Positions 207 to 64,000 of a DNA stretch of 64,000 nt are shown here, piece by piece. Position numbers and translations under genes: made by a program. The notes beneath the pieces are model-generated. The model did no database searches and was not told the DNA's origin. It saw only the letters and a program-made list of their open reading frames with translations. Origin of the DNA: Antedon mediterranea (taxonomy: Eukaryota > Animalia > Echinodermata); contig NC_092673.1 of NCBI RefSeq assembly GCF_964355755.1, forward strand, positions 19,465,648 through 19,529,647. The letters are read 5' to 3'. Numbering within the stretch: the first letter of the stretch is position 1; each line of letters opens with the position of its first letter.

Positions 207-3200
207 GTTGGCAAAAAATTTAGTGCAAAAGGTATGTAACATTTCCTCATGTAATTTTCATTCAATAACACTTAATTAGTAGATGATGATGTAGAGTTGA
301 ATGACTGACTTTTTATGTGCAGTTCTGAGAAACAAAAATGAATAGTTCACAAATTTGTTTGCTTATCGAAATTTGTATTGACAATTTCGTATGAATCATT
401 TGTTTATTCAACCAACAAACAATAATGTAATATATAATAATGTCATACATTATAGGCTCATAAGCAAAATATATTGAACAACAGAGGACATGTTATTTAA
501 TATTTTGGCCCATATTGAAGATGCATATACAGTAACTCCAGATTTTAATCAGTTTTTGTGACCAATATATTGATTTCCCTAAAAAACAATAGGCATGTTC
601 TTTCATTTTTAAATGAAAACAAATTTGAGCCAATAACTATTGTACTATTAACAACAAACAACAAGAATGTGAAAGAAATAATAATAAGACTACTAAAAAG
701 AAGATGTCATGTGTTATGTGACAAAAAAACCCACTGTTTTCATTATAGGTACTAAACCTGTACGCTTTGATGCAGATCAGCCATTAGATAAAGAAGTAAT
801 TCATGATTTTGAGCAAAAGAAATTTAAAAGCTTGGAAAATACATTTAACATCTGGGATCATGGAGGACAGTTGATATACCATGGTATACATAGTGTAAGT
901 TCAGATATTCAGCATTATAGTAGAGAGGCCAAATACACAAAAGTCCTCTATAAAAAGTTTGGGGGGCATTTTTTGTTAATAGCAGGCAACCATGTTGAAT
1001 GTATCCTTTGTGGGGTGACAAAAACGATAGGGGTGGATGCCATCTTCAGTTTTGGGTTTTAAGGTCAGTTTATGTGGTCAAGAGGTCAAACAATGTCAAA
1101 ATATAGGATTTTTTTTTATTCACGGAAAATCATCTACATTATCAGATCTATCCAAAAAGGTATATCTGAAGATCAACTGATGCTTCATATTATAGTAATT
1201 ATGAGATAAACATTTAATTTTACACATAAAAACATAGGAAATTAAATATAAAAGTGTCATTTCTCAAAATGTTGTTTTCACATATTTCTGTAAAGTACAC
1301 ACAGTTTTTTAATAGGCTTTTCCCAGTCTGTTGTAAATTTGTCTTTTTCATGTTGTCCACCAGTCGTTTTGATTTTTGTCGGGAAAAAATAGGTCAAGTG
1401 TTATATGTATGAAACGCCATATGTGCCAAAAGATTGGTCTTTTACTATAATATTAATATTACCTATATTAATTAATGTAATACAGTAATATTTAGAATTT
1501 TGTTTTTAGAAAAATTATTAATATTACCTATAATAATGTAATAATACTTAGAAATTTGTTTTTAAAAAAATTTCGAAAACAGAGACCTAATGTCGAGATG
1601 TTTTTGTTTGGGTCAGAGACTCCCTATAATGTAACTATTTAAACATTTTTTCATTATTTCAATGATACAAGTTTTTATTGAAGTTTGTTGTTTCAAGAAA
1701 TCTCGAAAGAGAAACCTGGGTATCGAGTCTTTGCTTTCAAAAACCTAACTATTGGACTTTATCAAGGTTGGAAGGAGTGGTAATTGGGGACTTCTTTTCT
1801 TCTTGAGGCCTTCGCATCTATGCTATCATGGCTGACGGTGATAACAAATATAAAACTCCTTAAGTAATTAAGAAGTCCTTTATACACATGGATAAAGACG
1901 GTTTTAACGTTATTTAGAAACATTACGTTACGTACTGTGTCCAGGTATGAAATCCATCTCTCCAAAAAGACATAAACGCACTTGAAGAGGACAACGTCAT
2001 GCGACAAATCAAATTCCAGCTATCCATTCTTATTCATATGAAGATCGTTTAAAGTTTCTTGGTCTAACAACCCTATATGACAGACAAATTCATGGTGACT
2101 TGATTGAAAATTTTCAAAAGATTTCGAGGGTGTAGCCAAGGAAGACTTCCTTCAAATGAGATGCAATCTAAGCAGAAATACACGAGGACATCAGCTTAGA
2201 CTTTTTAAACCTAAATTTCACAAAGAACTGATAGGAGATCCACTTTTTCACAATTAGTAATTATATATTTTAATAGTTTGCCAACCAAAGTCGTCATTTC
2301 TGAAACCACCAACACATTTAAAAACCGATTGGATTCGTTGTAGAAATGAGGTTAAAAGGGTAAACAAATTTACCTATCTAAACTATCAGAACCAATATTC
2401 TAAACACTGAGTGGATGATTGATCAATTCAAAATAGAATCATTGGTATAACAAGAAACGCTGTAATTCATTGAAAGGTTCTGCATGACATGGTCAGACTG
2501 ATCACGAATCACACATAATACACAATATTCTTTCGAACTGACAAATGATGACAACTTATTGAAAGAAAAAAAACAGTAGAACTTAGAACTTCATGAGCCA
2601 CTGAGAAAGCATCGCTCTAAACCTTTGCGGATTTCTATAGGCCTAAGGCAACTGTTTCGATAAAAAAAAAAAAAGTAGCCTATATAAAAACTGACAGAAA
2701 ATCTGCTGATCAACCATTGGAGTATGATCATAGCTCAATTTTAATATCTTTAACCAAATATGACTTCACATATCTTGATGGATGGCGTTGAAATACCCAC
2801 AGATGTTCCAGAAGAAAACTTACAGTAAAAACATGATGGTCATGCACTATAGGATGCAGTAAACATGGCTGTAAACATTTTGGTGACTATGCAAGTATTT
2901 ATTCAAGTTACCTAGATATTTCGTCATTTTGTTGTATTTGATCATTACATTGTGACAGTGACACGATTGAAAGGATAGTCCCAATGTACTAATCTGTACT
3001 TCCGTATGTGTTTTGGGCCACACTCATCGGTTTGGAGGAGAACAAATATCACAAAGTTATTAGACATTCTTTATGTCAATAACAAAGAGCTTGCAATTAT
3101 ACATGAAAGTTGATGTTAATTTATAATGATATGCACTTTGTAACAGTAGCCTTCAAAAGTATGGACGATGTCTGGTATAGTGAACAATAAAGTGGTTGAA

Positions 3201-6200
3201 AACCTATTAAGAATAATCTAACCAGCTTCCATGCCATTACAGGTTGCAGCACGTCATTATTTGCTGGTTATGGGAAGAGGTCATACTGGAAATCATTTGT
3301 AACGCATCCACTCCTTGTAAATGGAATTGATTAAGATTAAGACTTTCCACGTACAGTGTACACTAAAGTTTAATATTGCCAAATATATGGTACTCTTGAG
3401 CAGAACTGTATAATAACAGACTACTCTTTGGTGCTACCTCCATCTAGACTCAGTGACTATATACCATTAACACTAGTGATATATAGTTTATCTGATTATT
3501 TTGAAACTACTGATCATGCATATAATACAAGAATTAATCATTATTTTAATTTAGCCATTCCTCCTTGTCGTATTAATTGTGGACAATTTAGAATTTCTTT
3601 TTCTGGTGCTGTTATTTGGAATGATTTACCTTTAGAATTACAAACAATTACATCTAGATTTGCTTTCTCTAAACAACTTAAAGAATTACTTTTATCTAAG
3701 TATATAAAAGAATAATCTATAATTTACAATGTTTTTATATATTGTTAATTCATCAGATATTATCTATTGAACTGATATGGTTTTGTTTATTACAGTATAG
3801 TACATACAGCACTTATGTTATGTTATTTTATTTATTTATTATTCAACATTTTTTGTTTTGTTTTTGAAGTTATCAAATTTTTATTTTCTTTTAAGTTCTG
3901 TTATTTATTTGTTAATTTTGTAGCTTAAGTTAGTTAAGATAAAAGGTACCAAGCTTGATTAGCTTCGGCTATACCTTGGCTACCTTTTGTATTAAATTGT
4001 TTTTTGTTTGATACAATAAAGAAGATTATTATTATATTTCCCTTAAATATTAAGTATTTCACTTCACTCAATAAATATTTAAGTACCTGTATTTCTACTT
4101 CGGGAAACACTTAAAATTAAAAAAACTCGCCTATGGTGAATACAGACATCATAGAACCTGAACATACGAGCCAACTATCAGGCAGAGCTATAAGTATGTG
4201 GCCTAAATGAATCGGGTCGTTTGGAAGCCCCTAACCCAGTTGTCAGTTTGGAACTTGTTACATGTGCATGTAAACTAAAGAGCCAGATGAAGTTGTTACA
4301 GAAAGCATGCATATGTGGTTGTGATTCAATCGTTTGCCGTTACCCAGATGGCCAGTAGGCATTATATATCAGTGCTTGAAGAAATACCCACATCAGAGCG
4401 TTACCTCCTTCCATCCCAGAAAAATTTCGAATATTGGCATGTGCCCATGCCGCCCATTACTCCCAACCCACAAACCCTCTGTGACCGTTTTTAAATGAAA
4501 TTTAAGACATTCCAGTAGGCCTCCAATTTCGGTTATTTTGATACTCTAGGACTCATCCTCTCCATTCCTTGAACACCTTCCAGGAGTGACTCAAAAAGTT
4601 TAAAATCTTCCCAGTACAATTCTGGTCTTTTTGACACCACACTATAACCATCAGCCCCAGGCTATCATGAAAATTATATTTATTTCAATTATTAATACCG
4701 ATAATTAACAGGTCTGTGCTCTATTTGACCTTATGACCTTGAAAATGACCTTTAAACTTGTAAGTTGAAAAATTGATGAACTGCACCATCTACAGCAATA
4801 TGTCAATAATGATCCAATAATGGTTACATTTCTTTTAATTAGCTTATATGTTGTTGAAAACAGCTTAAACCTCTATTTTACCATATTTGACCTTATAACC
4901 TTGAAAATGACCTTTGACCTGAAATTTGAGAGCGGCATCCACCCCTATCTTTTTTGTCATCCCATAAGGGATATATTCCACATGGTTGCCTGCTATTAAC
5001 ATAAAATGCCCCCCATGATGAAAAAGCTCACATTGGCCGCCCTACTATTATATAAAACCTAAATAGATTCCTCTCATTTGATTGGACAATTGTGGGTCAC
5101 AATAATAATATAGTAAAATCTAAGTGGCCTAATTTTATGCTCGCCAAAAACGTGGTTATTTCGGATTTTACCGAATGAAGCCTAGACAGCGCGTCCTCCA
5201 TAACAACAATACTTTGCCCATGCTCCAGCGCAAGATAGATAACTGTTGCTAAGCTCCTATCTTATAACACTACGCTCCCTGTAATTCCATAGACGCCTTC
5301 TATTCGATTTAAAATCTAAATGGTTTAAATTTTTGCAGTCCGCCTCAAACTTTCTGTGGTTAACCATCTTGAGGGTTGATTCATGAAAAAGGTAATAAAT
5401 TATGTAAACAAAGTAAAATAATAGTTTCTTTTGGATCTGGACACTTTCCTATTAATTCTGTGTGTTTACATCCGTCTTTGACCGAAACATTGTACAATAT
5501 TGCCTTGACAATGACTTATTCTGCTTCATATTTGTCCTCCTGATTGGTGTCCATGGGATTACGAATATCTCGCACAATCATCTATCTTGCGCGCTATACA
5601 ATCTTTGCTAGAACTACGCTTGACCTCCCATAGACAACAAGCACTGGAGTTAAATGATAATGCAAACCCTCAAAAACACCAAAAAACAAATCAAATATGT
5701 GGTCAGTAGGCTATAGTGGTAAATATCTTCTTTAGATGTTTAAAAAAAAAAAAAATTAGGTATCCTAGGCCTACGTTTCAATCTGAATCAAATGTAGGCT
5801 AGGCCCAGGCCTTTCATTCAATCAATCTGAATGAAATGACAAGAATCTACTTACTGTAGATGTTATATAAAAATAATTATTTTATATTCGTGCTATGGTA
5901 TAATTAATCTCATTCAGTAAATAAATAAGGTCTCACTTGCTTGCTTTTTTTTAGTTTTCATAAGATTGTGGCAAATTTTAACCAACTCTTCAAGTTTAAT
6001 TGCATATGTATACTTTTGCACATATATACACATGTTATACAAAATGTACATACAAGCAAAAATATTTGAATTTATGAAAACTGCCCAGATTAATTCTCAG
6101 CTATTAACAATGATTCTCAACATTCTAATTATAATTTAGTCTATAGTATTAACACAATTATTATTATTGCAGATCTTCATGACCTCAGAAGCACTTTACA

Positions 6201-9200
6201 TTGTAGTGTTCGATCTTAGTAAACCCCTTGATGATCTTGCTAAGGTCATTGATGCTACAAGAGTAAGTATTTCAAGAACATTTAAATTGTTGTGTTTGAA
6301 CAATTCATCTTGATGAGGACTTTATACTTTATATGCGTCACAAGGAGTTTAATTGTTAAATGTAATTTCTTTCAGCTTACATAAGTTCTGTTTTAATCAA
6401 TTTGAAATACCAATTTTGTGTAATTTTTTTGTTTACAGGAAGAGCGTGAACATCATTGGACCAATCTCCAGTTCATATTATCTTACATCCAGACGGTTTA
6501 TTCTCATAGTCGTATTGGGGGAGAAAACACAAAGAAGGGAGTTCAAGAACCAACTATCCTTATTGTGGGTACACATAAGGGTAAGCTTGGTAAGACTGAA
6601 GAAGAACAAAATGTTGAGGTTAGATACTTATTTTAGTTCTACATTATTAAAAATAGCAAGCTGTGTACATGTTGTTTTAAATAATAATGTAAACAGGCTG
6701 ACTTCTGGTGTTTTACATATTCAAGTTAGATTCAAAGAGCTTAAACTGAAATTTTTTTCTTTTCATTATTTATTATAATCAGGCAAAAAAAGTATTTGAG
6801 AAGATTGAAAATACGCTTAAAGAAAAACCATATGAAGAACATGTATATCACCAATATTTTGCCATTGAAAACAGTCGAGAAACTGCAGATAAGAGCTTCA
6901 TTAAACTCAAAAAAGTTATTGACAAGCTTATGACAGATTTAAAAAAGGATGTCCCTTTAAAGTGGATGCGTTTTCGATGTGATCTACATGATCTAAGAAA
7001 GGATGACCTGAGAAGGCAAAAACCTTTTCTTTTGCATCCTTTAAAAGAGGTAACATTTATTTGTCATCTTCTTTATTTTGTATCTACTAACTATAAGAAC
7101 ATCACCATAGCTAATATATATATTTTTTTAATTAATTGAAAATATTATTTCCCCATTCATATTACTGTTGTTAATGCACTCTGGCATATCATGCGCTATA
7201 TACACATATAAATTAGCTCCACAGTGGAATAATATACGAATAATGAATTATTTGTTTTATAACACACCTACTTTTAATAAGAGGCTACAACAAAACTAAC
7301 ACTAACAGAGAAGGTAGCACTTCAATTTTAGACATGGACTAGAACAAAGTGCACGATTCATGACACACACTACAGCCTTGTGTCACGCATAATTGCTCTT
7401 GTGACATAAATACAAATGAATAAAGTTGAAAGAAGATTCCTCCGTGTATTTACTATGCATTAACCACTTTGTCACAGATAGATTATTACATACCGCAATG
7501 AATTTTATTTTGTTACTAAGATGACATCTTTAAACATTTTTAAAAAAATATACGCTGTCAAAGTATATATTTCTTTCCAACGTTAATATACGAAGATTTT
7601 AAAGAAGAAGGAATGTTAAGTTTGTAATTCGGTCCAAGAAAATGTCATAGTGCGCGTGTAAAATGTTTTAAATGCTTAAAATAGACTAAACATACTCTAA
7701 TTTCATCGAAAATACATGTTGACAATTTTGAAAATTTTAAGCGTGCGTTTGCATGCGTTTTATGCGCTACACACATAATTGTATTGCCATAATGATGAAA
7801 TATGACCTGAAGTTTATGAGTATCAAATTTGGTTTAATTATGATTAATGCTTGTGAAGAAAATTGGGCTTTTCATGTATAATGTTACTACTAATCAGGAC
7901 GTGCGTTTTTCATCGCTCTTTATTAAAATGGTTCTTACCATAATTATAATACAAGATCTAAAGACAAAATGAGACTCAGAAAACGTAATCGTACTTCTAC
8001 TAGTTTTACTGTGTCATGTGTGGGACCTAAATTGTGGAATGACTTGAATTATGAACAACAAAATACCAAATCAATATATATATTTAAATCATTGTTTAAA
8101 GAACATTTATTATCATTTTACAAATAATTTTAAAATAATACTTGTTGCAGGATTTAGCTTTTTAGGTGATCATTTAGAATAAAATGATCACCTATTGTTA
8201 TTGTATAAAATATTTATTCTTATGATTCTTCTTTATTTCTCTCTGTACAGATTTTGTGTAACAAATATCTCAAAAAGTTGAATGTTAATGATTACCAAAA
8301 TTTCACAATGTCTTTCAAATACTTTAACTTAGTCCTAATAAGCTTTTCAGCGTGATCACTCATCCGTGACGTCATTTATACGCCATTTTGTGAAATCACA
8401 TTATCAATCATATCTCCATAATTCATTATCACATATTAACGAAATTAACAACACGTAAACTTCAGGTCAAGGGTAAAAATATTATCAAATAAAAACGCAC
8501 GCGCACGTAGGGTCCTGCACGTGAAATCGCGCGTTAAAAATTTAAAAAGCCTACCTCAACCAAGTATGTTACTCATGAGTTGGCAATATTTTCATTTTGA
8601 TGACGTCATCACGTCTTAAAATTTGAATAACAGTGGTTACGTAATTTCACCCACAACGTATATTTGAATACCTTACAGCTCTTCTGAATTAAAGTTGACC
8701 TTGATGTTTATAACTTATTATGAGAGCTGGTGAAATTTAGATATGAATTCATATAAAAATTAAGCTGATCGGATGTTGTTATCATATGGCCAGTTGAAGT
8801 TAAAAATAGTTTTTAAATTTCTTTAGTCAAAGTTATACAAATTTCAAAGAGCGCACATTGCGCTTCTACGTGTCAAATTCTCTTCTAATTCTTATATTTA
8901 TTTGCTCAATTCATTATCCTTCGAAATTATCATCTTCGAGTTTGTTTTGATAATTCCATCATACCAAAAAATTAGAACATGATGTGTGCCCCGTAATTTC
9001 ACCTATGCTACACTGTATATAGATATATACAGTATATACGGTACTGTATAATTATTGTATATGGCATATAATAGGCACAACTCAACACTATAAGCGTATA
9101 ATAGGATGGAATACATCATCATTTTCCGATCGTATGTTAACGTACGTGCATGTTTAAAAAAAAAAATTTCAGTAATTAATTAATATCAATAATTAATTAA

Positions 9201-12200
9201 TTAATGTCAATAAAATGATAAAAATGATCACCTATAATTCGTCAAAGTGACGAATTAAATTCTAGTTTTAATTATTTATGTTTTAGTTTTTAGGCTAGTT
9301 AGGGACGTAGGGGGACACAATTAATCAAGCTCCTTTGAGTTTTTATGTGTTTCCTTTTCATCTTTATTTTATGTTCTCATATATTGTTGTATATTTTCAT
9401 GATTGGTGATGAATAAAGAATATTTGAATTTGAATTTGAATTTGAAGATATGATTACAAACGTGATTTTGTTAAATCGTGCGTAGACCGTGTAATATTTT
9501 TATATTTTTGTGTCTTCATACTGTGTGTGATTAGGCTAATTTCACTACAAGCATGTGTATGCTAAATTTGGTGTAATGGTTATATAACCAGCTTTTCAAC
9601 TAACAATAGTTTCAGTTGACTAACAAATTATAACATCAACGCCAAAGCAAACGGATGAATTTGAAAAGAAATAGGTTTTTTCTGAAACTACTCATATCAA
9701 AAAACCTGTATATTAAATCCAATTATGTTCACAAATTACAAATTATAACTCTTGCCTCTTGTACAAAAAGTTTTTTGAACAAGTACTTCTCGAGAAAATG
9801 CAATTTCAGTTTACTTGTTTACTTTAAGACTGCACGCCAGCTTTTGAAAATTCTGTCCTATCTTTTAACACTAGCAGGTCTGAACAATTTTAAAAAGTGG
9901 TCCATAATTGGGAGGGTGATCCATGATAATGCATATAACATAATAAAACATGACATGCCTTAATTCCTTAGATCAAAACACTGGCTGCTAAGAATGGTAT
10001 TGCCGAAAAGGAACAATCAGTGCTACTTAACTTCTTGTATGATATTGGTGAAATTATCTACATGCCTGACAAGGAATTATTAAAAGATCAGGTGGTGTTA
10101 ATTCCCGATAGCTTGGTTAAAGTTTTAACCAGATTTGTAACTGTGGTTCCATCAAAAGTAAGTAGGCTCATATCAAATTATAAACAAGTGCTCAATATCA
10201 TTTCTTGTTCCTTTTGGAAAAAGTTTTATTTTTCAAAATAAACTGAGGTACTTATTCTTATAGGCAAGATTATTTTAAACAGTTGTAGTGGTATAGTGTA
10301 AGATTATATGTGATCCTTAAAACTTTTCATAGTGTCTATTTGAAGAAATGATGCATATTATTCTCAAAACTAACATTGTTGTTCCCAACATCCCTCTCAT
10401 TCAGTTTCTGAATATTCATCTATCACTAATGTAATAAATACAGAAACACACAATCACATTTATGGCTAATTATTGGTGTTTTCTTTTAGCCGGTCACGTT
10501 TAGAAAGGCTTATCGTCAGCTTGACAAGGGCATACTGGAGGAAGACTTATTGCGAAACTTTTTTGAAGAGTGTAAAGTAGATGTAGATGTATTAAAGAAA
10601 TTTGAGTTACTTGTAGAACTGATGATTCAATTAGGTTTCATTTGTGAGATGAAGACAACCAGCAGCCCAGATGTGGCAAGTACATCTACAGTAGGTTTTG
10701 TTTCTTTTTATTGTTTATGTAAGGGCTAACTGAAACAAGTTTACATTTTTATGCTCTGTATTATTTGTATGGTATTTGATGAAATAAATGTTTGTTGAAC
10801 TTGTAATTTCCAATGTTAGTAGTATGATTTGTCTGCGATTTTACTGAATATAGTATACACAATTTTAGCCTTCAGACATGATTTTGTTAACATTTATACT
10901 GAAAGATATTTTTAACATATATAACTGATCTTTGGTTCTTTTAAATGACATTAAACAAAATTATCAATTTCAGGGTTCCATTACAAAGCGGTCATTTTTT
11001 GTGCCACTACGCCTTGCTTTCAAAACATCAAGTGAAGTAAAACAGGAGCCAGATGATTCACAATCTATCAGTATCTATTATGACTTTGAGGGATATCTGC
11101 CAGATGTACTGTTTCCATATGTCATTGTGGAATGTCTTAACAAATTTCAATTGGAAGGTTTTGAGCCAAAATTGTCATGTAATCATTGTAAACTTTACCT
11201 TGACCAATTTCATCATGTGACCGTATCTCTTGTCCAATTCACAACTAAGGAGGATAAGCAAAAGTTCTTGTTAAAGGTACATACAATCTCTAATAAATGT
11301 TCAATATATATTTGTTTTTATAATATTTATTGTCAACAGTGTCATACATCTGTTGAATAATATAAGTCAGAATTTACTGTACACATGTATAAACATAATA
11401 ACAAAAATAATTTTTTTATCCAGATGACTGTTAAAAGAACAAATTCTTTTAAACAAACAAATGATGAAAAATGTGAACCATCCTCTGAAGCATGTCAAAA
11501 GGTATTTTTTAGATATTTTTCTAGGTTTTTAAATTCTGTAGATAGTTTGGTTTTTTAAACATTCTAAAACCATTTTTGAGATGACACATAACAATTATAC
11601 TGCCCACTACTTGACTTAAAAAGGTGGTCTTATGTCTGGTTGCGTGAGAGCGCTTATGTCGACATTTCGAGGAACTGAAGGGAACCAGTGTCGTGGTTAC
11701 CATAAGACGAGCATCACGCGATTTGTAGTTGTATGAGAATCAGTATCTGCGGTAAATTACCCACTTGATTACCCATGCCACACACATGGTTTTCAGTTTC
11801 CAGGTCCATGGGCAACTGAAAGCAACTAAGCTTATGTCAACATGTTTTGTGTGCCAGTCAGTTGCTTTCAGTTGCTCGGAACGCTTAAGTCGATACAGTT
11901 GAGTTCCATGTCGACATAAGAGCACATTTTAAGTTAAATATTACAGTTAAATTTTATATTTCAATTTTAAATAAACTAGGAATAGAAATTGGATTGAAAT
12001 TGAAAATAACAAAAATGAGAATATTAATTATGATATTAATCATGATATAGTAATGATATATGATGTTAATATTAATTAAAATTAATGAAAATACTAATCT
12101 GGAAAGCACTTCCAGATGACATACTCCTTAACCAACCAAGTTTGAAGTTCATAATGAAGTCTTAAAGTTGACTAATGCCAATTTAAGGTTTTATTTATTT

Positions 12201-15200
12201 TTTTATTTTAACATATAAACTTTCACTAAAATGGATGATGAGCAATTAAATAGTTCATTAAAACCAAATAAACCAAATTATTACAGTAGTACATAAACTT
12301 TATAAACTTCAAATTATTAGAAAAAAATAAATAAATAAATGCTCGTAATAATAGTTACAATAATAGCAAAAACAATATGCATATAATTTATCTGGTATTT
12401 CTTTTTATTTTTAATGTATTGTAAATAATATATAACACAATATTCTAAGAATATGTGCTGCTATTTTAAAGAAGTTTTTATTATTGTGTGAATTAATTTA
12501 AATTTCTGCATGTTTGAAATCATAATCCAATTTATATTTTTAGGTGTTGTCAACAGTTGAGAAGACATTTAAACAATCTAAAGATGGTGGTAGAAGAGGA
12601 ATTCCATTCAAGAGATGCATTCCTTGTGATTGTAGTCTTACATCAGAAAAGAAGCATTTTCAAATTCTTCCTAATTTCCAGTACGAAAGGTTGCCATGTA
12701 ATGAAGATGACAAGATTTTAAACACAAATGTTGAACGTTACAAGCTACTATTTGGAGGTAATAGCAGTGACAAAATTCATTATTGATAATCTATACATTG
12801 TTACAACATGCTGCTATTAGCTGTGATATCTTCATTCCTCTTAGTAGTAGTAGTACTATCAGAATCATTATTGATAATCTATACATTGTTACAACATGCT
12901 GTTATTAGCTGTGATATCTTCATTCCTCTTACCAGTAGTAGTACTATCAGAATCATTATTGATAATCTATACATTGTTACAACATGCTGCTATTAGCTGT
13001 GATATCTTCATTCCTCTTACCAGTAGTAGTACTATCAGAATCATTATTGATAATCTATACATTGTTACAACATGCTGCTATTAGCTGTGATATCTTCATT
13101 CCTCTTACCAGTAGTAGTACTATCAGAATCATTATTGATAATCTATACATTGTTACAACATGCTGCTATTAGCTGTGATATCTTCATTCCTCTTACCAGT
13201 AGTAGTACTATCAGAATCATTATTGATAATCTATACATTGTTACAACACGCTGCTATTAGCTGTGATATCTTTATTCCTCTTATCAGTAGTAGTACTATC
13301 AGAATCATTATTGATAATCTATACTTTGTTATAACATGCTGCTATTAGCTGTGATATCTTCATTCCTCTTACCAGTAGTAGTACTATCAGAATCATTATT
13401 GATAATCTATACATTGTTACAACATGCTGCTATTAGCTGTGATATCTTCATTCCTCTTACCAGTAGTAGTACTATCAGAATCATTATTGATAATCTATAC
13501 ATTGTTACAACATGCTGCTATTAGCTGTGATATCTTCATTCCTCTTACCAGTAGTAGTACTATCATAATCATTATTGATAATCTATACATTGTTACAACA
13601 TGCTGCTATTAGCTGTGATAAAATCATTCCTCTTACCAGTAGTAGTACTATCAGAATCATTATTGATAATCTATACATTGTTACAACATGCTGCTATTAG
13701 CTGTGATATCTTCATTCCTCTTAGCAGTAGTAGTACTATCAGAATCATTATTGATAATCTATACATTGTTACAACATGCTGCTATTAGCTATGATATCTT
13801 CAGTCCTCTAACCAGTAGTAGTACTATTAGAATCATTATTGATAATCTATACATTGTTACAACATGCTGTTATTAGCTGTGATATCTTCATTCCTCTTAC
13901 CATAGTAGTACTATCAGAATCATTATTGATAATCTATACATTGTTACAACATGCTGCTATTAGTTGTGCAACACAAGAATATAGGCACACAAGTAATTTG
14001 ACCAATGACAAGTGAATAAGCTCAGATGAGCTGTGCATTGCATCTTGGTGTGCATCCATGAGATACTTTGCTGGACCCAATGGTGTCCACTTACAGGAGG
14101 TTCAACTAATATTTTTTATTTTATTTGCAGATGAAACAGAAAGAAAAAGAAAATATTCAGATCAAGGTAATTGATTGAAATAAGTAGATAAATTTTGCAA
14201 AATGTTGTACTTTTATGGACTCAATGATATTTAATTATAATAAAGTATTTGTCTTTGTTAATGCTGTGCTGCCCTCAATGACGATTGTTTGAATCTCTAG
14301 GATGCAACACAAGAGCGTAGGCACAACAATAGTAATTTGACCAATGACAAGTGAAGGATTGGATAAGCTCAGATGAGCTGTCGCTTGTTGTAGATTACCC
14401 GCATGGCAATTTCATCTTTGTGTCTCAAGTGATTATAGTTAAACATGGTATGCAGTGCTCCTCCCCTCCCTTAACAAAACACTCAATTGATACTATCAGC
14501 TGAATCTGTCTGTAGGCACTTTTATAAGCAGATACTTTTGTGGACCCAAGGGTGTCCACTTACAGAAGGTTCACCTAGTGTAATTTTTTTCATTTTATTT
14601 GCAGATGAAATTGGGCCAACTGGAAGAAAAAGAAGAAAACCAGACCAAGGTGATTGAAATATTATATATCAGATAAATAGATTATTTAAAAAAAAATGTA
14701 AATTGTACCTATGTTTTACTTTTATGTACTCAATGATAATTAACTAGTATTATAACATGGGTTCAAGGATGTACAGTGGCCAATCAGATGCGCTGAAATG
14801 AGTCACATGTGCGCTCTTATTTTTCACTATCATGCACTGAAGTGGAAAAAGTTCCCAGCAAAAAAGCATAACACCACTGCATGTAAATCATATAGCAGAG
14901 TATTACCGATCGTGCTAGGCATTTTCTAGGCTAGGCGGTAATTTGGTCGGCAAGCAAAGGGGTGATTGCTGCTCCCTAGGCCTTGTCGGTGATTTGGTCG
15001 CCGAGCAGAGTGGTGATAATAATTCATAGACCCATGTTGTAAAACAAATAACGCACAATTCTAAATTTGTGCGCTACTGGAGATGCAACGCACTCTCTGG
15101 TATTAACAATGTTGTGCAACATACACCATTGTAAATACCCTCAAGTTTGCCTTATCTCCTCTAACGCACAAATTTAGACTTGTGCGTTATTTGTATAATA

Positions 15201-19021: not shown

Positions 19022-19454
19022 TCACAGACTTAGCACAATGATGCAATAAACATGGATATTCTATTCATACAAATGTTAGACGGCGTTAAACTGTTAAAAA
19101 CTGGTACCAGTGCAATCTACCTGTGAACTCTTTTACCTGCAAATTGAGTAGTGATAGTGAGATGTAATGTTAGCGTGTCATACCTCAATATACAATAGCG
19201 TAGGTACCTTGGTATCCCAGAATTAAAACACACTAGTTATTGTCTGTGGTGTTTTCTTTCCAAAAAAAATTGCTGTCCCCTTATAATAGGATTAAATCAA
19301 CCATTTGGCACTCTCAAACGTGTCCCTGTCCCTTTAATAGGGTTACATCAACCATTTGGCATTCTCAAACGTGTCCCTGTCCCTTTAAAAGGGGTGTCCC
19401 CTGATTAGGAGTTGGCTGTAGTGTTAAAACATATATTTCCCCTCGTTTTATGAG

Positions 19455-24600: not shown

Positions 24601-24622
24601 GTAGGGAGATTTAGATCCTTCC
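21610..24622. mobile_element. Foldback-type (Mutator-like) non-autonomous element, 3.0 kb, almost fully palindromic
   Basis: Outer TIRs of about 320 bp starting GGAAGGATCTAAATCTCCC; 9-bp TSD TAGAAGAAT (21601-21609, 24623-24631); interior is two opposed arrays of about 60-bp units; paralogous empty site at 61703-61711. Confidence 0.9.
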
Positions 24623-26552: not shown

Positions 26553-26760
26553 TTTCATGATGCATCGAAACGACGAATAACTGTTGCATAGTTTGACGTA
26601 ATGCGTAAAAAACTACTGAACTTTTCTATTTAATACTGAAATTTATTTTAACAATTTGAGAACTTGCAATGCACATAGAATATGATCATGGACCTATCTA
26701 ATTTATAGGTCCATGGTATGATAAAGAAATTGGTACACTATTTAAAAAGTGTAATAAGGG

Positions 26761-30590: not shown

Positions 30591-30782
30591 AATTATATTA
30601 CAAAACTAGATATTTCATTAAAATAGATTTTTCAAATAATAGATTTAAACACTATTTGATGAAATGTAAATGAAACTACTGTACATTTGTACAGTAGTTT
30701 CATTTACATTTCATCAAATAGTGTTTAAATCTATTATTTGAAAAATCTATTTTAATGAAATATCTAGTTTTGTAATATAATT
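30591..30782. repeat. Perfect palindrome, 95-bp arms with a 2-nt spacer
   Basis: 30591-30685 is the reverse complement of 30688-30782. Confidence 0.92.
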
Positions 30783-30883
30783 TTTCGATATTTACAAAAT
30801 ATCCTATAATTTTTTGCAATGAGTTACAAATTATATTCATCATTAGAATAAAATGATCACCTATTGTTATTGTATTAAATCTT

Positions 30884-53634: not shown

Positions 53635-55638
53635 TCACAAAACACAGAAGATGACTAATCAATGTTTGTAAAAATATGGAATATTTTATTTATTTGTGTT
53701 TCATTTTATGCTTCATTTTTGTTCAATTCAAGAAACATTTATTGACCAAAAATATTATATCATAACAATGGTTTGCATATAATATATATAGTCGAGAGAC
53801 TACAAAGGCCCAATGGGCCTGTCGCTGTAGTCCCTCTTTACATTATACAAATAATAATAATACAACACTTAATCTTAATTAGCCATTACGTACATTATAT
53901 AAATGGAAAAAAAAAAGAATACAGTATCTTAATTAATTAGGTTAAAAATTGGTATATATATATATATTATGCCAGTATTGTGTTTAATAATAAATAATTT
54001 AAATAAATGGAAACATCTAGTTAGTTTATTTTGTTGTTACTATTACAGTCAACTCTCCCAATACTAATATTATTTTACTATGAATTAAAGTATTTATTAA
54101 CAAATGAATTTATGAATAATTTACATAAGGCTCAGAAGAAATGGACGAATAACCTAAAAGATAAATTATTAAAACTATCTAAAGACTTGATGTTAATAAT
54201 TTAATTATTTTATCGATTCCTTTTTCTTTCTTACCTTATCATAATGGACACAAATCCTGCATATCAACGTAAAATCTGTTTATAAGCATCACATACAGTT
54301 TAAGATTTTTAAGATGACAATAGTTCAAATACATGTAGCATGTCAATATAATCTGTATGTATTGGTATTTGTTTAACATATATATCTTTCTATATTTGCA
54401 TTATTTTATATCGTATACATGTCAATTTAATCTATAGGTATGTGTATTTGTTCAATATATATACTTCTATACTACTATAATATGTTATACCGTAAATACA
54501 AATTGTAAGTAGTAGTTGTACTAAGATGACATCGGGTATGAAGCGTCTCACATACACACAGAGCCAAAATTGCATCTTGGACTTGCACCGTGTATGGACT
54601 CTAACCTTACGGTTTCCATTAAATATACCATTTCATGCTATCATTCTAAATAACTAACTTTCAACCTACTGCATTCCTCTTTTTTTCATACCATCCATCT
54701 TATCTTGGTGAAAAGGGAGGATACTACATTTTCCTCCCCTGAGTTTATAGCCTCTCTACTCGAACACAAACTCGAACACAAATAAGATCACAAATAAGAT
54801 AGTTTAACAAGACAATTTTAATCATGTATTTTACCGCCATTTTTCATTTCTACATTTTAATTAACATCGTATCTAAAATTTTAAATGAGAAAATATATGG
54901 TTAATATAATGAATTCTGGCATCTTATTATGTAAATATACCGGTATTTTAACTACTCTAAACACTTACTTTTAATTGTCACAAATGTACTTATATGTATA
55001 TAATATATTCATCAATGAGAATTTAAATAAACGTGAGAAGAACTCACACAAGACAAAAAAAAACTCTCCCAATACTGGACACCTTTGGGCTGGCATAATA
55101 TTTCTAGTTTTCTGGAAAGTCTGGTATTCAGAATGTGTTTCTAATGGTAAATAAATATGGGACCTTTTGGAACTCAAGAAGTGTCTGTTTTTAGGAAAGA
55201 GTTTCTGGTTTTTGTGGCCAGTATTGGGGGAGTTTTTTGTTATATTAGTTCTAATTTAATTCAAATTATGCATCTTTACACATGTGGGTTTGTTGCTGTC
55301 AATTATAATTTGTTAAATTTGAATGGGCAATAGGGATGTCCAAAAAAAAATGTGAAAATTGATGTTTTCAAAATTATATTATCATCTATAATTATGAACA
55401 AGTAATTGAGAGAAGCAATCCAATTTTATTATTTTTGAGTGCATATAAAAAAAACTAAAGTAGAATGTTCAAATTTTAACAAAATGAAATTAAAACAATC
55501 TATTGTCAAAATTGTTGAGGTCTGACAATGGTGATGATGAGAATGGTGCTGAAAATGTTGATGATAATGATTGTTAATATAATGAATGGTGCTAAATGTG
55601 TTTGACACAATTTATGTCAAACGCAGAGCAGGACCAAT

Positions 55639-56571
55639 ATGTTTATATATATATATTTAAACCAAACCAAACCAAACGCCACGTTACAGTATATCCATCA
55701 ACAAAGTAACCACCCACCGACCATCCTAAAGAATATACCCGCCGGAATAAACAGGCGACTCTCGTCCTTGTCATCCGACAAGAATTCATTCGACCAAGCC
55801 GCCCCTGTATACCAGAAAACTCTCAACAACAGTGGATACCAGTACACACTAAAATATGAGCCGGTAACCCAGACAAGACGAAAAAACAGACAACGAAAAG
55901 ACATTCTGTGGTACAACCCACCGTTCAGCAAAAACGTCAGCACAAACATTGGACAGAAATTCCTATCCCTAGTAGACAAACATTTTCCAAAAGATAACAA
56001 ACTAAGAAAAATCTTCAACCGAAACACTATCAAGATTAGCTACAGTTGTATGAACAATATGAAACAGATAATAGACAGTCACAACCAGAGAATACTCAAC
56101 CAGCCCGAAACAACATCCATGGAAAACACGCAAGAAAACAAAACATGCAACTGCCGACAGAAAAACACATGCCCGCTAAACGGAAATTGCTTACAATCAT
56201 CTGTAATATACCAAGCCACAGTTACACGCAAAGACAAATCCACCTCGGAAACTTATATCAGACTTACTGAAAATTATTTTAAAACACGATACAGAAATCA
56301 CACCTCATCATTCCGTAATTCACGTTCTAGAAACTCAACTGAACTCAGTAAACATATTTGGACACTCAAGGACAATAACACAGACTATACAATCTCATGG
56401 CGCATCTTGACATCTACTAAAGCATATAGTAGCGCAAACAAAAAATGCAATCTCTGCCTTAAAGAGAAATTATTTATCATCCGCCACCCTGAATTATCGA
56501 CATTAAACAAACGTAACGAACTTGTGTCCGCCTGCCGGCACAGAAAGAAAGCATTGTTACATAACAGCTGA
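55639..56571 (+). pseudogene. Penelope RT C-terminus plus GIY-YIG endonuclease (truncated)
   Basis: Lacks the RT core; YIG motif reads YIR. Confidence 0.85.
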
Positions 56572-56780
56572 CATTCCAAAACATATCACCTGTAAATGCT
56601 AATTCTACAAGTAAATGTGCTTATAAGCAGCGTTGTAATTGATTCTTCTCATTATAGTCTCCTGATGAGTGAGTTGCACGACTCACGAAACAAGCCTGTA
56701 GAGACCAAACTGTAGTTTTTACTTCTTTTCCAGACTTAACGTATATATTTATTATATATATATATATTCTTTCCTTAGCA
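55660..56780 (+). mobile_element. 5'-truncated Penelope-like retroelement
   Basis: ORF 55639-56571 with RT C-terminus (YIHQQSNHPP, WYNPPFS), CNC..CPL..C, VIYQATV..TYIRLTE..FKTRYRNH, CNLCLKEK; 3' UTR with hammerhead; (TA)n at both ends. Confidence 0.9.
56657..56705 (+). ncRNA. Type I hammerhead ribozyme (Penelope-associated)
   Basis: GTCTC-CTGATGA-GTGAGT tgcacg ACTCAC-GAAA-CA agcc TG-TA-GAGAC: core boxes with stems I and II paired and a minimal stem III. Confidence 0.85.
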
Positions 56781-57344
56781 TTATTTTGTCCGTAAATAAA
56801 TCCAGAGATTAAGTTCATCTTGCTATGTCAATTTTTCAGAGTATATTCCTTATGGCCAGGAATTGATGTGATTAGCTTTTCACACTGCACAATCAAATAT
56901 TACGCGGCTACGTGCAATTTATCGAAATCACGTTTGTAATCATATCTTCACAACCATGTATCATAATTAAACAAAATTTAGTACTCTCAAATTTTAGCTC
57001 ATATTTCATCATATTCGGCCTTAACATGTCAAAAAAATTGTCCAAATTTTTTTTCTATGAAATTAGTATACGTTTCATGCAATTTTTTAAACGCTTAAAA
57101 AAATACACGGAGGAATCTTCAACTTTTATTCAGGTGTGTGCTTGGTGGTCTGTGATCGCATCTATGGCATTCAAGGTACTGAGATCGAGTCTCACCTTGG
57201 GAAATGAAATAAGATTTTTTTTAAATATCCATATTGTTTGTTTATATTCATGATTTATAATGAAATCTAGAGAAAAATTTTTTTTTATTATTATGTAACA
57301 AGGGTGGTTTTGACAAATACGCAGCAAGAGCATTGATCAGATTG

Positions 57345-57580
57345 TTTTATTTGATGTGCAGTGATACTGGCTATTGTATTTGATGTGCAGTGATACTGGC
57401 TATTGTATTTGATGTGCAGTGATACTGGCTATTGTATTTGATGTGCAGTGATACTGGCTATTGTATTTGATGTGCAGTGATACTGGCTATTGTATTTGAT
57501 GTGCAGTGATACTGGCTATTGTATTTGATGTGCAGTGATACTGGCTATTGTATTTGATGTGCAGTGACTATTGTATTTGC
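57345..57580. repeat. 29-bp minisatellite (7 full units plus a partial)
   Basis: Unit TGTGCAGTGATACTGGCTATTGTATTTGA. Confidence 0.92.
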
Positions 57581-58966
57581 GTTACCAAGATCCTATCTTT
57601 CATTATATTATAACTACCGTAATTAAAGATTCTGACAATATCAATCAACCAATATATCTTTTAAAAATCAATTATCTTAATTTAAATCAATGCATATAAC
57701 CTATAATTTGTGATAGTGACGAATTAAATCTAGTAATTGAATATACTGTATTACTATATATTTACAATTTGTTCTTGTGTATATTTCAACAATAACATGT
57801 AAAGTAATGTCAGGTATCGAAAGTTTGTCATTTGTTGTGTCGGTTGGTGGATTATAATATTCACATTAATAATTTTATGATAATTATCGTACCATGCTAT
57901 GTAATTTTGATGCGTAAATGTACTGATATCTTATATTACCGTAATTTGTACTCTCAGGGTTTTCCTTATGTTTATAGATAAGCCAATATGTATGTATACA
58001 CATATTTTACAGAGAACGTAGAAAGTGAATAAAGTTATTTATGTGGCAACCAAAAACACAGTTTGGATGTTTTATTCTGTGATTTCCGTATGACTACATC
58101 GAGGAGAGCCTCACACGCTCATATCTATGAAGCAAACACAAATTAATACAGATTGTTGAATATACCACAACAGTAATAAAGATTTCTTAAATAAAAATTG
58201 GTGGGAGAACAGAGCAGCAGACTAAGTTTTTATTGTGATCAGAAATGATACCATTATTGAAAAAAATGTTATTGAACTGAAATACTAAAGTAACAATTTT
58301 TCGACAATTTATTTTTGTTGTTGTCGTTTATGGACAACAAGACAATTTATTGTGGATAATATTAATATTCACAATCTGTAGTTGTTGACAGGTGATAATG
58401 ATAACTATTAATTTATCAATCTGTGTGAACTGTCATCTTAAAATGTCTGTTTAATTCATATTTTGCAATTTCAATGTTTTCATTCTTAATGCTGCAAGTT
58501 TGACCTACTGTAATTAATATAATAATTCAATTCACAATAACATATTTGTCTTTCTTTTCTAAATACAGTAAATGAACAGAGTTTGAATAGTAAAAATAAA
58601 GAGGCAAAATACCCTGGAACTGGAAGTACTTTGGAAAGTCTTCCAATTTTATTTTACTTGAGAGAACCAGTTAATTATATAGTTTGTTAATTAATTTATG
58701 ATTTTGATGTGCAGAATTACAAAACTAAACACATGGAAATGAGACCAGGTAAACGGAAGTAAATAATTAAATCCTTGCGCCCTCTAATCCTTACCATACT
58801 AGACATAGACACAACTTTTGTTGAATCCCACTGTGCTACTAAACACCACTTCTCTAGCCCTGTTCCATATTTGAAACAAACAATGCTTAAATCTAAATTA
58901 ATGTTTGATGAATTCTACAAGTAAATGTGCTTATAAGCAGCGTTGTAATTGATTCTTCTCATTATA

Positions 58967-59015
58967 GTCTCCTGATGAGTGAGTTGCACGACTCACGAAA
59001 CAAGCCTGTAGAGAC
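58967..59015 (+). ncRNA. Type I hammerhead ribozyme, duplicate copy
   Basis: Same sequence as 56657-56705, offset 2310. Confidence 0.85.
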
Positions 59016-59654
59016 CAAACTGTAGTTTTTACTTCTTTTCCAGACTTAACGTATATATTTATTATATATATATATATTCTTTCCTTAGCATTATTTTGTC
59101 CGTAAATAAATCCAGAGATTAAGTTCATCTTGCTATGTCAATTTTTCAGAGTATATTCCTTATGGCCAGGAATTGATGTGATTAGCTTTTCACACTGCAC
59201 AATCAAATATTACGCGGCTACGTGCAATTTATCGAAATCACGTTTGTAATCATATCTTCACAACCATGTATCATAATTAAACAAAATTTAGTACTCTTAA
59301 ATTTTAGCTCATATTTCATCATATTCGGCCTTAACATGTCAAAAAAATTGTCCAAATTTTTTTTCTATGAAATTAGTATACGTTTCATGCAATTTTTTAA
59401 ACGCTTAAAAAAATACACGGAGGAATCTTCAACTTTTATTCAGGTGTGTGCTTGGTGGTCTGTGATCGCATCTATGGCATTCAAGGTACTGAGATCGAGT
59501 CTCACCTTGGGAAATGAAATAAGATTTTTTTTAAATATCCATATTGTTTGTTTATATTCATGATTTATAATGAAATCTAGAGAAAATTTTTTTTTTATTA
59601 TTATGTAACAAGGGTGGTTTTGACAAATACGCAGCAAGAGCATTGATCAGATTG

Positions 59655-59919
59655 TTTTATTTGATGTGCAGTGATACTGGCTATTGTATTTGATGTGCAG
59701 TGATACTGGCTATTGTATTTGATGTGCAGTGATACTGGCTATTGTATTTGATGTGCAGTGATACTGGCTATTGTATTTGATGTGCAGTGATACTGGCTAT
59801 TGTATTTGATGTGCAGTGATACTGGCTATTGTATTTGATGTGCAGTGATACTGGCTATTTTATTTGATGTGCAGTGATACTGGCTATTGTATTTGATGTG
59901 CAGTGACTATTGTATTTGC
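59655..59919. repeat. 29-bp minisatellite (8 full units plus a partial)
   Basis: Same unit, one more copy than at 57345. Confidence 0.92.
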
Positions 59920-60929
59920 GTTACCAAGATCCTATCTTTCATTATATTATAACTACCGTAATTAAAGATTCTGACAATATCAATCAACCAATATATCTTT
60001 TAAAAATCAATTATCTTAATTTAAATCAATGCATATAACCTATAATTTGTGATAGTGACGAATTAAATCTAGTAATTGAATATACTGTATTACTATATAT
60101 TTACAATTTGTTCTTGTGTATATTTCAACAATAACATGTAAAGTAATGTCAGGTATCGAAAGTTTGTCATTTGTTGTGTCGGTTGGTGGATTATAATATT
60201 CACATTAATAATTTTATGATAATTATCGTACCATGCTATGTAATTTTGATGTGTAAATGTACTGATATCTTATATTACTGTAATTGGTACTGTACTCTCA
60301 GGGTTTTCCTTATGTTTATAGATAAGCCAATATGTATGCATACACATATTTTACAGAGAACGTAGAAAGTGAATAAAGTTATTTATGTGGCAACCAAAAA
60401 CACAGTTTGGATCTTTTATTCTGTGATTTCCGTATGACTACATCGAGGAGAGCCTCACACGCTCATATATATGAGTTGAAGCAAACCCAAATAAATACAG
60501 ATTGTTGAATATACCACGACAGTAATAAAGATTTCTTAAATAAAAATTGGTGGGAGAACAGAGCAGCCGACTAAGTTTTTATTGTGATCAGAAATGATAC
60601 CATTATTGAAAAAAATGTTATTGAACTGAAATACTATAGTAACAATTTTTCGACAATTTATTTTTGTTGTTGTCGTTTATGGACAACAAGACAATTTATT
60701 GTGGATAATATTAATATTCACAATCTGTAGTTGTTGACAGGTGATAATGATAACTATTAATTTATCAATCTGTGTGAACTGTCATCTTAAAATGTCTGTT
60801 TAATTCATATTTTGCAATTTCAATGTTTTCATTCTTAATGCTGCAAGTTTGACCTACTGTAATTAATATAATAATTCAATTCACAATAACATATTTGTCT
60901 TTCTTTTCTAAATACAGTAAATGAACAGA

Positions 60930-63900
60930 GTTTGAATAGTAAAAATAAAGAGGCAAAATACCCTGGAACTGGAAGTACTTTGGAAAGTCTTCCAATTTTA
61001 TTTTACTTGAGAGAACCAGTTAATTATATAGTTTGTTAATTAATTTATGATTTTGATGTGCAGAATTACAAAACTAAACACATGGAAATGAGACCAGGTA
61101 AACGGAAGTAAATAATTAAATCCTTGCACCCTCTAATCCTTACCATACTAGACATAGACACAACTTTTGTTGAATCCCACTGTGCTACTAAACACCACTT
61201 CTCTAGCCCTGTTCCATATTTGAAACAAACAATGCTTAAATCTAAATTAATGTTTGATGAATTGTTTATACAGTACTCAATTATATTTTTTATGAATACA
61301 TTTTATGATGTCTGTTTGTTGAAATGATTTGAAATGTTTTTTTCACTTTTACTAACAATTTTGTAAATTAAAACTCAATTCAGTGTTTATGCTGCTATTT
61401 AATGTTTATATATTTTTAATAAATACTAATGAATGAAAAACTTATTTGTTTATTTTTAAGGATAGTGTTTTTTGAAGGTGTAGATTTTAACATCGAGGAG
61501 AGCTTTATATCAAAATGTACGTGCTTAGCTATTGTTAAAAATTCATTGTATATTATAGGAATAATATCCATTTCACCAATGTTCGATTTTACACAGCTAT
61601 AATGTGTTACGTACACAAATGGTGATTGCGCCCTCTATAAAAAATAAAGTTTATTCACTCCAACAAACCACTGTACTCTCGCATCGCAACATGTTATCCT
61701 CCTAAAAGAATGTCAACACACAAGAAGTAAGTTTTTGTTTCATTTTTGGCATACCATATCATATACGGAATTCTTTATACTGCATTATTTTAATGGCAGA
61801 TCTTTCTTCTTTTATTTTTTTTGGATCTTATATTCGTATCCTAGGCTAGGCCTAGCCTAATACTACTCTAGCCTATATTATTAGGCTAGGCCTAGGCCTA
61901 GGCCTACTACCTCTAGCCATGCTCTAGCTAACAAAGGCCTACTACTACTAGCCTAGGCTTTTAACCCTAGCTAGGCCTACTACTTGATAGTACTATAGTA
62001 GGCCTAGTAGAGTAGTAGGCATGGAGGAAGTCTCCGCAACTTGTTGTTAGTTAAGAGATAACAGACGTCAACTGCATTGGATTGGATTGGTCCTCAGACG
62101 AAGCAGGTCAAGTCGGCCCTAAACCGTCTCGGCCAAAGTCAAGTCGGCCCCACGTCAAGTCGGCCCCAAGTCAACTCGGCCTCACGTCAACTCGGCCTCA
62201 CGTCAACTCGGCCTCACGTCAACTCGGCCTCACGTCAACTCGGCCTCACGTCAACTCGGCCAAAAACTAATCGGTCAACTCGGCCACAATAAAGTATGGA
62301 ACGCAAAAAGTGCTTAATATTATTATAATTCTTACTAGCCTATCCACGCTTTAAAAAAAATTAGAAAAAAAAATTAAATAATATATAAAAAAATGAACTC
62401 ATTGCCGATATGAATATAAGTACCCGCGTGTTACAAAAACACGTGCAGGTACCGCATTTTAGTAAATCGAACACGGAGGCCTACGTTCCACCATTTGGCC
62501 ATAGAAAAAATGATCGTACATATCGTTTTTGTCCATGATTTGCTTTTTAAAAAAAGGGGAATCCCCCGGTCAGTGAAAACACGTAACAGTTGTAGATATC
62601 GAAAAAGCTGCCAAAGGCGCAGGGAGGCGCAGCTACGAATTGTTTTCAATTGTGCAATTTGAAATTTTATTAAACGTAAATAAAGAAAAGTTGGTGAAAT
62701 CATTCCTACTTTTTTTGCTAAATATATTATTGTCTAAATATTAATATTCATTAAAAGTCAGAATTATTTATAGTTAAAAAATTGTGAAGAAATATTATTT
62801 TATCAATCCCCTTCATTTGCACTTTTTGCGTTCCATATTTTAACGGGGCCGAGTTGACCGATTATTTTTTGGCCGAGTTGACGTGAGGCCGAGTTGACTT
62901 GAGGCCGAGTTGACTTGGGGCCGACTTGACTTTGGCCGAGACGGTTTAGGGCCGACTTGGATCGAAATCACGATGAGGAAGCTTTAACGTTCATGCTCGA
63001 CTCATTGAGGAGATCAGGGTTAACATTTTTTTTAAAAGCCACAAAAAAAGTAGAACAAAAGCAGAGAGTCGACCCTGCAACCCCTGCCTCTGGGGCTATA
63101 CCCTTATCAATACACCAAGCCATCCATCTCGTTGGTCGAATCGGGTTTTACTTTGTATATGAATGGAGAAAAAATATATTATATGTAAGCTTTTTAACCA
63201 ACCAATCAGAACTTAGTTGACGTCGTTTCTATACTTGTGTAACCACATAACAAACAGGCCTTCCATTGGGTTTCCCTGATCTCACAACAAGCATTCAAAC
63301 ATGGTGTTGTGGTCTTTCATTTTCAAAAAACACAGTGTGGTGGTCTTTCATTTTCAGAAAACACATTGTGGTGGTCTTTCATTTTCAGAAAACACATTGT
63401 GGTGGTCTGTTGTTTTCATGATACATCAAATAACTACAATGCACTGTAAAGTTTGACGAGATGCGTAAAAAACTACTGAACTTTTCTGTTTAATACTGAA
63501 ATTTATTTTAACAATTTCAGAACTTGCAATGCACATAGAGTATGATGATGGACCTATCTAATTATAGTCCATGGTATGATAAAGAAATTGGTACACTATT
63601 TAAAAAGTGTAATAAGGGATCATCTCACAGTGTGTTGATTGACTTGGTGCTGTGTAAACCATGCACTGTGGCTGCTGTGAGTACAGTATAATGCCATATC
63701 TGAATTTCCTCAACTCAGAGGATGAATGCCACTATACATTTATGATGCAGTATTTGTCACAATTGTGTGCATTAACTATTATTACATTATCAGATTTGTG
63801 ATTTGTGATAGTATGTGTACTGACAAGTATCTGCCATTTAATAGTATTAATTGTGTGGTAAAATTGTCAACTAGATGCTGTCCTACAATTACCTCATCCT

Positions 63901-64000
63901 TTGGAAGGAACATAAAGTTGTGAACAACATAAATACACATTTTATATGTGAAGTCGGCTATATTGTTTGAAGGTTTTCATGGTGAAATCAAATGTTGATA
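60930..64000 (+). repeat. Segmental paralog of the gene A-gene B intergenic region (20860-27940)
   Basis: Colinear matches, e.g. 20863/60941 AAAAATAAAGAGGCAAAATACCCTGGAAC, 25065/63088 CTCTGGGGCTATA, 27880/63900 TTTGGAAGGAACATAAAGTTGTGAACAAC. Confidence 0.92.
62109..62959. mobile_element. MITE with TIRs built from 16-bp subrepeats
   Basis: CAAGTCGGCCCTAAACCGTCTCGGCCAAAG.. at 62109 is inverted at 62845-62959; GTCAACTCGGCCTCAC repeats; absent from the paralogous site near 25045. Confidence 0.8.

Follow-up and report, generated by a model that had tools for sequence, protein, structure and literature searches.

The stretch analysed here (the window) comprises 64,000 nucleotides (nt) of the crinoid Antedon mediterranea (contig NC_092673.1, positions 19,465,648 to 19,529,647; coordinates below count from its first base), and carries two Roco genes in tandem, which we refer to as A and B, both on the forward strand, as is every other feature below for which a strand is known. 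Hand-built models and self-alignment of the window show that nine Roc-COR exons pair one to one between the genes (A/B): 749-894/43060-43205 (146/146 nt), 6173-6262/45130-45219 (90/90 nt), 6439-6618/45439-45618 (180/180 nt), 6783-7049/45815-46066 (267/252 nt), 9972-10157/46566-46757 (186/192 nt), 10490-10690/47072-47266 (201/195 nt), 10974-11276/47439-47741 (303/303 nt), 11424-11501/47925-47996 (78/72 nt) and 12544-12757/48400-48613 (214/214 nt). Five of the nine pairs are equal in length, the phases are identical across all nine, and all have AG/GT ends; 365 of 545 aligned core residues are identical (67%), with 78.6% DNA identity. The tandem duplication of A and B is real, and the exon correspondence described beforehand from the letters alone (the sequence-only reading) is borne out, as is its report that intron contents differ: intron 1 of the shared set measures 5278 nt in A and 1924 nt in B, intron 4 measures 2922 and 499 nt, and the long terminal repeat (LTR) element of B lies upstream of the nine shared exons. 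The period of about 40 kb proposed in the same reading does not hold as a period, there being a single, variable interval of 35.9-42.3 kb, in which the offset of paired exons falls from 42,311 to 35,856 nt.

A and B are members of the Roco family, with Roc followed directly by COR. Pfam on the RefSeq protein of gene B (P0001, XP_071948801.1, from which the hand model differs by two residues at one acceptor) gave Roc at 55 bits (cut-off 27) and COR-A at 42.2 (cut-off 35.3), with partial Roc and COR-A matches in the core of A; a profile search also found the Roc-COR tandem, and the top Foldseek matches of the whole B model were LRRK1, LRRK2 and CtRoco (E 1e-14). The G1 (GQEGVGKT), G2 (ITDGI) and G3 (WDHGGQ) motifs are intact in B, and A's G1 lies upstream of the window and is seen in protein model P0061. 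G4 reads THKG in both genes, as in 20 of 23 family motifs, and 22 of the 23 lack the guanine-binding Asp; a family-specific loss of this residue, considered as the main novelty, was rejected, as 42 of 70 motifs in wider relatives also lack it and 28 have it. As G4-G5 vary among Roco proteins (PMC6337361), an Asp-less G4 does not exclude Roco membership. Where COR ends, in the exons at 12544-12757 (A) and 48400-48613 (B), a conserved Cys cluster (RCIPCDC...C) gives a weak RING-like Pfam hint (E 0.047) and may bind zinc. Nei-Gojobori estimates for the A/B cores were dS 0.46, dN 0.21 and dN/dS 0.45 (bootstrap 0.36-0.58), with all eight windows along the core at 0.31-0.65; the cores are under purifying selection, and no positive selection is detectable in this two-sequence test, which is blind to single sites.

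Gene B encodes a tandem death-effector domain (tDED), Roc with an acidic insertion, COR, a second tDED and two hydrophobic helices. Its coding sequence begins at 32907-32916, followed by the N-terminal tDED in a single 501-nt phase-1/phase-1 exon (33005-33505, Pfam DED) and by the first Roc exons at 34990-35155 (P-loop GQEGVGKT), 35730-35815 (switch I), 40963-41033 and 42319-42424 (acidic insertion). Behind the nine shared exons lie a linker exon (49006-49044), the C-terminal tDED, of type b, in a single 543-nt phase-1/phase-1 exon (50508-51050), a last linker exon (52981-53037) and a terminal exon (53465-53634) with two membrane helices (residues 1076-1094 and 1100-1118) predicted from hydropathy and also present in the structure model. 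All B exons keep an open frame and AG/GT ends, Pfam on P0001 returned neither a protease or kinase domain nor NACHT or NB-ARC, and contigs from a second organism match B exons and introns with few differences (e.g. 19 in 674 nt). A degenerate partial copy of the start of the first Roc exon stands at 34736-34805, ~240 nt upstream of the true exon.

Gene A starts upstream of the window, and its Roc-insertion exons (2-40 and 207-231) open the sequence; the RefSeq-type model P0061, which has no death fold, includes this 2-231 exon sequence after the P-loop GQEGVGKT, and P0015 (XP_071947403.1) is the COR part of the gene, a model that terminates in the intron at 12786. Directly behind the last COR exon, self-alignment revealed an 88-nt tandem repeat (12777-13968), beyond which follow four short phase-1/phase-1 linker exons (14131-14166, 14605-14649, 16172-16198 and 16464-16529), 100% identical to family protein P0010, and a single 540-nt phase-1/phase-1 exon (16920-17459) encoding the C-terminal tDED, of type a. 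This last assignment is by homology: the exon has a weak Pfam DED match (E 0.0026), is found in the tDED profile and tree, and is 100% identical to P0010 and 97% to P0011. The in-window exons from 2 to 17459 are open from Roc via COR and the four linkers into the tDED exon. The end exon (17617-17676) reads GNSEKK-stop, an ending also found in P0010, P0011 and P0021, and if it is skipped a last exon (18996-19022) gives DLSEDEKT-stop, as in P0030; a frameshift suspected in the exon at 17617 was rejected, GNSEKK-stop being common to paralogs. The 36-nt and 45-nt linker exons, both rich in basic residues, sit within an internal duplication (13967-14657), which suggests that the linker grows by exon doubling.

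It is in the tails that the two genes part. Identity between the A and B tDED tails is ~19%, or 28% in a BLASTP alignment of 71 residues, and the tail regions have no DNA match at E <0.05, a contrast that is read straight from the window and is independent of RefSeq models. Diversification lies in the tails and not in the cores, so that the earlier description of diversifying genes holds for the former but not for the latter; the term death-fold Roco was likewise sound as to Roco identity and the presence of tDEDs, but not in implying plain copies with a common death fold, as the tails are different modules. Each of the three tDEDs in the window is one exon with phase 1 on both sides, and such an exon can move without breaking the frame.

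The C-terminal module of B consists of two packed death-effector domains and is predicted to fold like the caspase-8 prodomain (pLDDT 91.8; best fold match the caspase-8 tDED, 4zbw, TM 0.78), with cFLIP and viral FLIP chains also among its fold matches; the N-terminal module of B, which has low confidence in the whole-protein model, and the A module were assigned by homology. The C-terminal module is 65-67% identical to modules of the Antedon NLRs P0037 (on the same contig) and P0048, yet only 32% identical to B's own N-terminal tDED and ~36% to the tails, likewise of type b, that the Roco paralogs P0019 and P0029 carry. FastTree groups it with the NLR modules at 99% local support in a tree of 104 modules from fetched proteins (by motif-based labels 43 Roco, 16 NLR, 2 caspase, 4 fibrinogen/B-box/NHL and 39 unclassified), which carries long-branch warnings and of which only short, well-supported groups were used. 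The N-terminal tDED of B is 58-61% identical to modules of NLR P0094, fibrinogen-domain protein P0077 and P0084, and related modules occur on caspase P0092 (42%), a fibrinogen-domain protein and B-box/NHL proteins. A complex prediction for the C-terminal tDED of B with the second tDED of caspase P0092 scored 0.00, which says nothing for or against binding.

Across 31 aligned cores (P0015 and P0031 were left out as duplicates), core and tail histories appear to conflict in the family. For example, P0018 and P0019 have identical COR cores, whilst their tails are of type a and type b, and P0017 and P0018 share 98.6% of the core and 71.6% of the tail. The reverse is seen in A, which shares 63.9% of its core and 97.6% of its tail with P0011, and 63.7% and 89.3% with P0021. 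Exon by exon, the best match of A runs at 54-80% across the core and then at 100% (P0010) past the intron with the 88-nt repeat; the repeat occupies the very intron where the ancestry of core and tail changes.

One B COR exon matches 29 proteins among 57 candidates, all from Antedon mediterranea, of which 24 are on one contig of 36,192,472 nt, linkage here being at contig level and adjacency shown for A and B only. This disposes of the possibility, raised in the sequence-only reading against its own inference of a cluster, that there are only two copies genome-wide. Relatives at 33-49% identity occur in Anneissia japonica, and membrane tails were found in 8 of 34 sequences screened. P0003, P0049 and P0040 are ankyrin-bearing relatives and could be the sensors; P0003 has two Roc-COR units alongside its ankyrins, and P0024, P0025, P0041, P0068 and P0066 between them carry an OGFOD2-like domain, a kinase with death domains, CBP-type TAZ/KIX domains, or Macro ahead of the core. 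With many linked paralogs of mixed architecture, varied tails and fragments, the family most likely forms a birth-and-death cluster.

The non-coding DNA between A and B recurs after B, much as had been claimed for 60930-64000: on self-alignment, seven blocks in the same order and on the same strand link 60913-63966 with 20836-27947 at 74-91% identity (E down to 1e-147), covering 1896 of 3088 bases, and identity climbs to ~90% toward the end nearest the start of B. The spacer holds no stop-free tblastx block of at least 35 residues, and none of 181 fetched proteins matches the window outside the modelled A and B exons. Accession numbers as a rule follow genomic position, and B's XP_071948801 is flanked by the family accessions XP_071948800 and XP_071948805. 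A third Roco unit, as predicted by the sequence-only reading, probably begins 5-7 kb past the window end, with B's spacing placing its start near 68,900; it is favoured by the collinear spacer and, if the numbering follows position, by the family accessions on either side of B. NF-kB-like and ISRE-like (interferon-stimulated response element) motifs in the spacer gave few matches, none at matching places in both copies, in a count made without a chance control, and Rfam on the window returned eight weak matches, all below gathering scores. In sequencing run X1 the summed contig depth, which is not a copy number, was 49-248 over the repeated spacer blocks, 16-170 over B exon bins (45169-49074), ~5-7 on locus-unique contigs and in the thousands over dispersed repeats.

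The region is also rich in repeats. A gypsy-type LTR retrotransposon (35928-40708), recognised by Pfam with gag and the order protease, reverse transcriptase, RNase H, integrase, occupies a B intron; it looks intact, and its two 178-nt LTRs, identical to each other, and 5-nt target duplication (GAATG) point to a very recent insertion in the Roc-coding region of B, and the B frame is unaffected if the element is spliced out. Runs from the second organism do not cover part of it, which proves nothing on its absence there. A head-to-tail 2.3-kb duplication (56601-61263, 97.8%) also doubles the start of the spacer blocks (58564-58874). A 321-codon frame (55606-56712, forward strand) without a real Pfam match resembles the end of a retroelement that we take to be of Penelope type, and is followed by a sequence (58960-59022, forward strand) that by eye fits the hammerhead ribozyme consensus (CUGAUGA, 6-bp stem II, GAAA, stem III, 5-bp stem I); the 2.3-kb duplication doubles this sequence, Rfam does not report a hammerhead there, and its minimum-energy fold differs from one. 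Minisatellites lie at 21919-24295 (~88 nt, the units palindromic), 26763-27659 (~60 nt) and 12777-13968 (~88 nt), the 60-nt array being an expansion of a unit of which the second spacer copy has just one (63622-63679). That copy alone holds a high-copy insertion (62106-63057) resembling a miniature inverted-repeat transposable element, with long inverted ends; contigs from other copies lack 1043 nt at this place.

Our reading, to which we give a probability of roughly 60%, is that A and B belong to a large crinoid Roco cluster in which the core is copied in tandem and is likely refitted, via phase-1 introns, with single-exon tDEDs and membrane tails drawn from a pool shared with NLRs, so that the products would act as nucleotide-gated immune cell-death scaffolds. 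Recombination in the phase-1 introns would refit Roc-COR cores with tDED and membrane-tail exons. The dimer state of Roc-COR would then change with the bound nucleotide, as in the nucleotide-dependent cycle reviewed for known Roco proteins (PMC6337361), and this change may cluster the tDEDs, in B on a membrane. Clustered tDEDs could seed or cap DED filaments together with tDED-caspases or tDED-NLRs, in keeping with known DED biology. It is from these analogies that we infer an immune cell-death function for A and B. The label of receptor, which the sequence-only reading had attached to such families, finds no support in either gene, as the window encodes no sensor repeats; for B, their absence suggests a helper, adaptor or tuner instead.

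Several observations pull the other way. The A/B cores show no positive selection at a dN/dS of 0.45, and no ankyrin or LRR sensor exon was found within the window. With G4 lacking the guanine-binding Asp, GTP specificity is uncertain. RefSeq breaks gene A up into short models, two at the least (P0061 and P0015), many of the 24 linked family models are fragmentary, so that there are fewer genes than proteins, and the tail swaps in the family rest on RefSeq models that may be mis-joined across tandem copies. The start and N-terminal tDED exons of B have an imported look, and the spacer may therefore mark neither the start nor the promoter of a Roco gene. Finally, P0010 (XP_071948800.1) has a tail that is A's residue for residue (100%), joined to a COR core that is absent from the window. 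P0010 may have been joined wrongly as a model, it may come from another locus whose tail was converted recently, or it may reflect genuine long-range splicing between a core further upstream and the tail of A. Its sister P0011 is a distinct sequence (91% in the core, 97.6% in the tail), which places this tail by descent with that core type and makes the core of A the foreign partner under all three readings. We consider unlikely a combinatorial death-signalling system in which crinoid Roco GTPases, NLRs and caspases share one mobile pool of tDED exons and, in addition, the tDED tail of A is spliced to either of two Roc-COR cores, that of A itself and the one further upstream in XP_071948800.1, so that RNA splicing would add to the core-tail combinations made by recombination. 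One sequencing run presumed to be RNA behaved like DNA, with no exon-exon joint among the matches listed.

The absence of sensor, protease and kinase from B, the closeness of its C-terminal tDED to NLR modules, the cFLIP and viral FLIP chains among the fold matches and the Asp-less G4 would all suit a different role, in which sensor-less Roco-tDED proteins like B act as decoys or brakes, copying NLR tDEDs in order to cap DED filaments in the way that cFLIP acts on caspase-8, or to soak up pathogen inhibitors, without triggering death. A pure decoy would have no need of the intact G1-G3 motifs or of a core under purifying selection, and we regard this role as improbable. Mostly neutral churn, in which an unstable, repeat-rich region multiplies and scrambles genes, many copies including A are decaying and the tail mixing is partly annotation error, would account for the splitting of A by RefSeq, the many fragmentary family models, the recent transposon insertions and local duplications, and a dN/dS well above that of strongly conserved genes. 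However, A (from 2 to 17459) and B keep open frames and AG/GT ends in all their exons despite a dS of 0.46, dN/dS is clearly below 1, the second organism's contigs match B exons and introns closely (19 differences in 674 nt), the family is also present in Anneissia japonica, and the difference between the A and B tails is read directly from the window, all of which make churn a distinctly poor account. Least probable is a non-immune role in cell death or membrane traffic like that of DAPK1 or LRRK2, e.g. during development, regeneration or the autotomy of arms, which would be in line with the action of vertebrate Roco proteins in traffic and cell death (PMC6337361, PMC4104024) and with the eight membrane-tailed sequences, but a large copy number, turnover and modules in common with NLRs characterise conflict systems (PMC8195603) rather than regulators of development.

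The tandem array is ordinary for families of this kind; what is new in the scaffold reading is that tails are exchanged with NLRs. By Pfam, profile and fold the Roc-COR tandem is that of LRRK1, LRRK2, DAPK1, MFHAS1 and the Chlorobium tepidum Roco, and DAPK1, too, ends in a death fold (PMC6337361), but B is without LRR, kinase or WD40 and has tDEDs at both ends and a membrane tail, and the crinoid genes differ further in a long acidic insertion between switch I and II, a G3 of DHGG, a G4 of THKG and their many copies. In Trichoplax adhaerens, where Roco genes number at least 17, Roc-COR is accompanied by CARD and death domains (PMC4104024), whereas the crinoid genes have as adaptors tDEDs of caspase-8 type, each encoded by one symmetric exon and with near counterparts on NLRs; tail swapping or clustering of the Trichoplax genes is not reported in the available portions of PMC4104024. 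Brown algae (Ectocarpus, Saccharina) have expanded, clustered LRR-ROCO genes with exon shuffling, some transmembrane-like C-termini and a proposed immune role (PMC4104024, PMC11378527, PMC3341825), but there it is the LRR sensor exon that is shuffled, under diversifying selection, whilst in this window it is a death-fold output module, with no sensor exon. Bacterial AP-GTPases, in which LRR, Roc and COR precede a variable effector, combine a constant GTPase-COR core with interchangeable C-terminal modules, and death-fold expansions are described in sessile marine animals including echinoderms (PMC8195603); the crinoid genes differ from the AP-GTPases in being animal and intron-rich, with swaps at the level of exons and a tDED or membrane tail as output in place of an enzyme effector. 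With the DED-NACHT-LRR NLRs of invertebrates they share the same tDED module (65-67% to the Antedon NLRs), and with caspase-8 and cFLIP the tDED fold seen in the C-terminal module of B; the tDED is all that A and B have in common with NLRs, their switch being a Ras-like Roc-COR and not a STAND ATPase. Roco is unmentioned in the accessible part of PMC6321704, and a literature search, largely of open-access main texts, returned no account of a crinoid Roco cluster or of tDED exons common to Roco and NLR genes.

Natural paralogs that combine one core with different tails, or one tail with different cores, offer a direct test of how Roc-COR drives death-fold output, and the same paralogs allow a test of whether an Asp-less G4 still selects GTP. 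If the scaffold reading is true, Roco GTPases, known mostly through LRRK2, would constitute a second NLR-like arm of intracellular immunity in crinoids, wired into a caspase-8-type pathway by the same exon cassettes as the NLRs.

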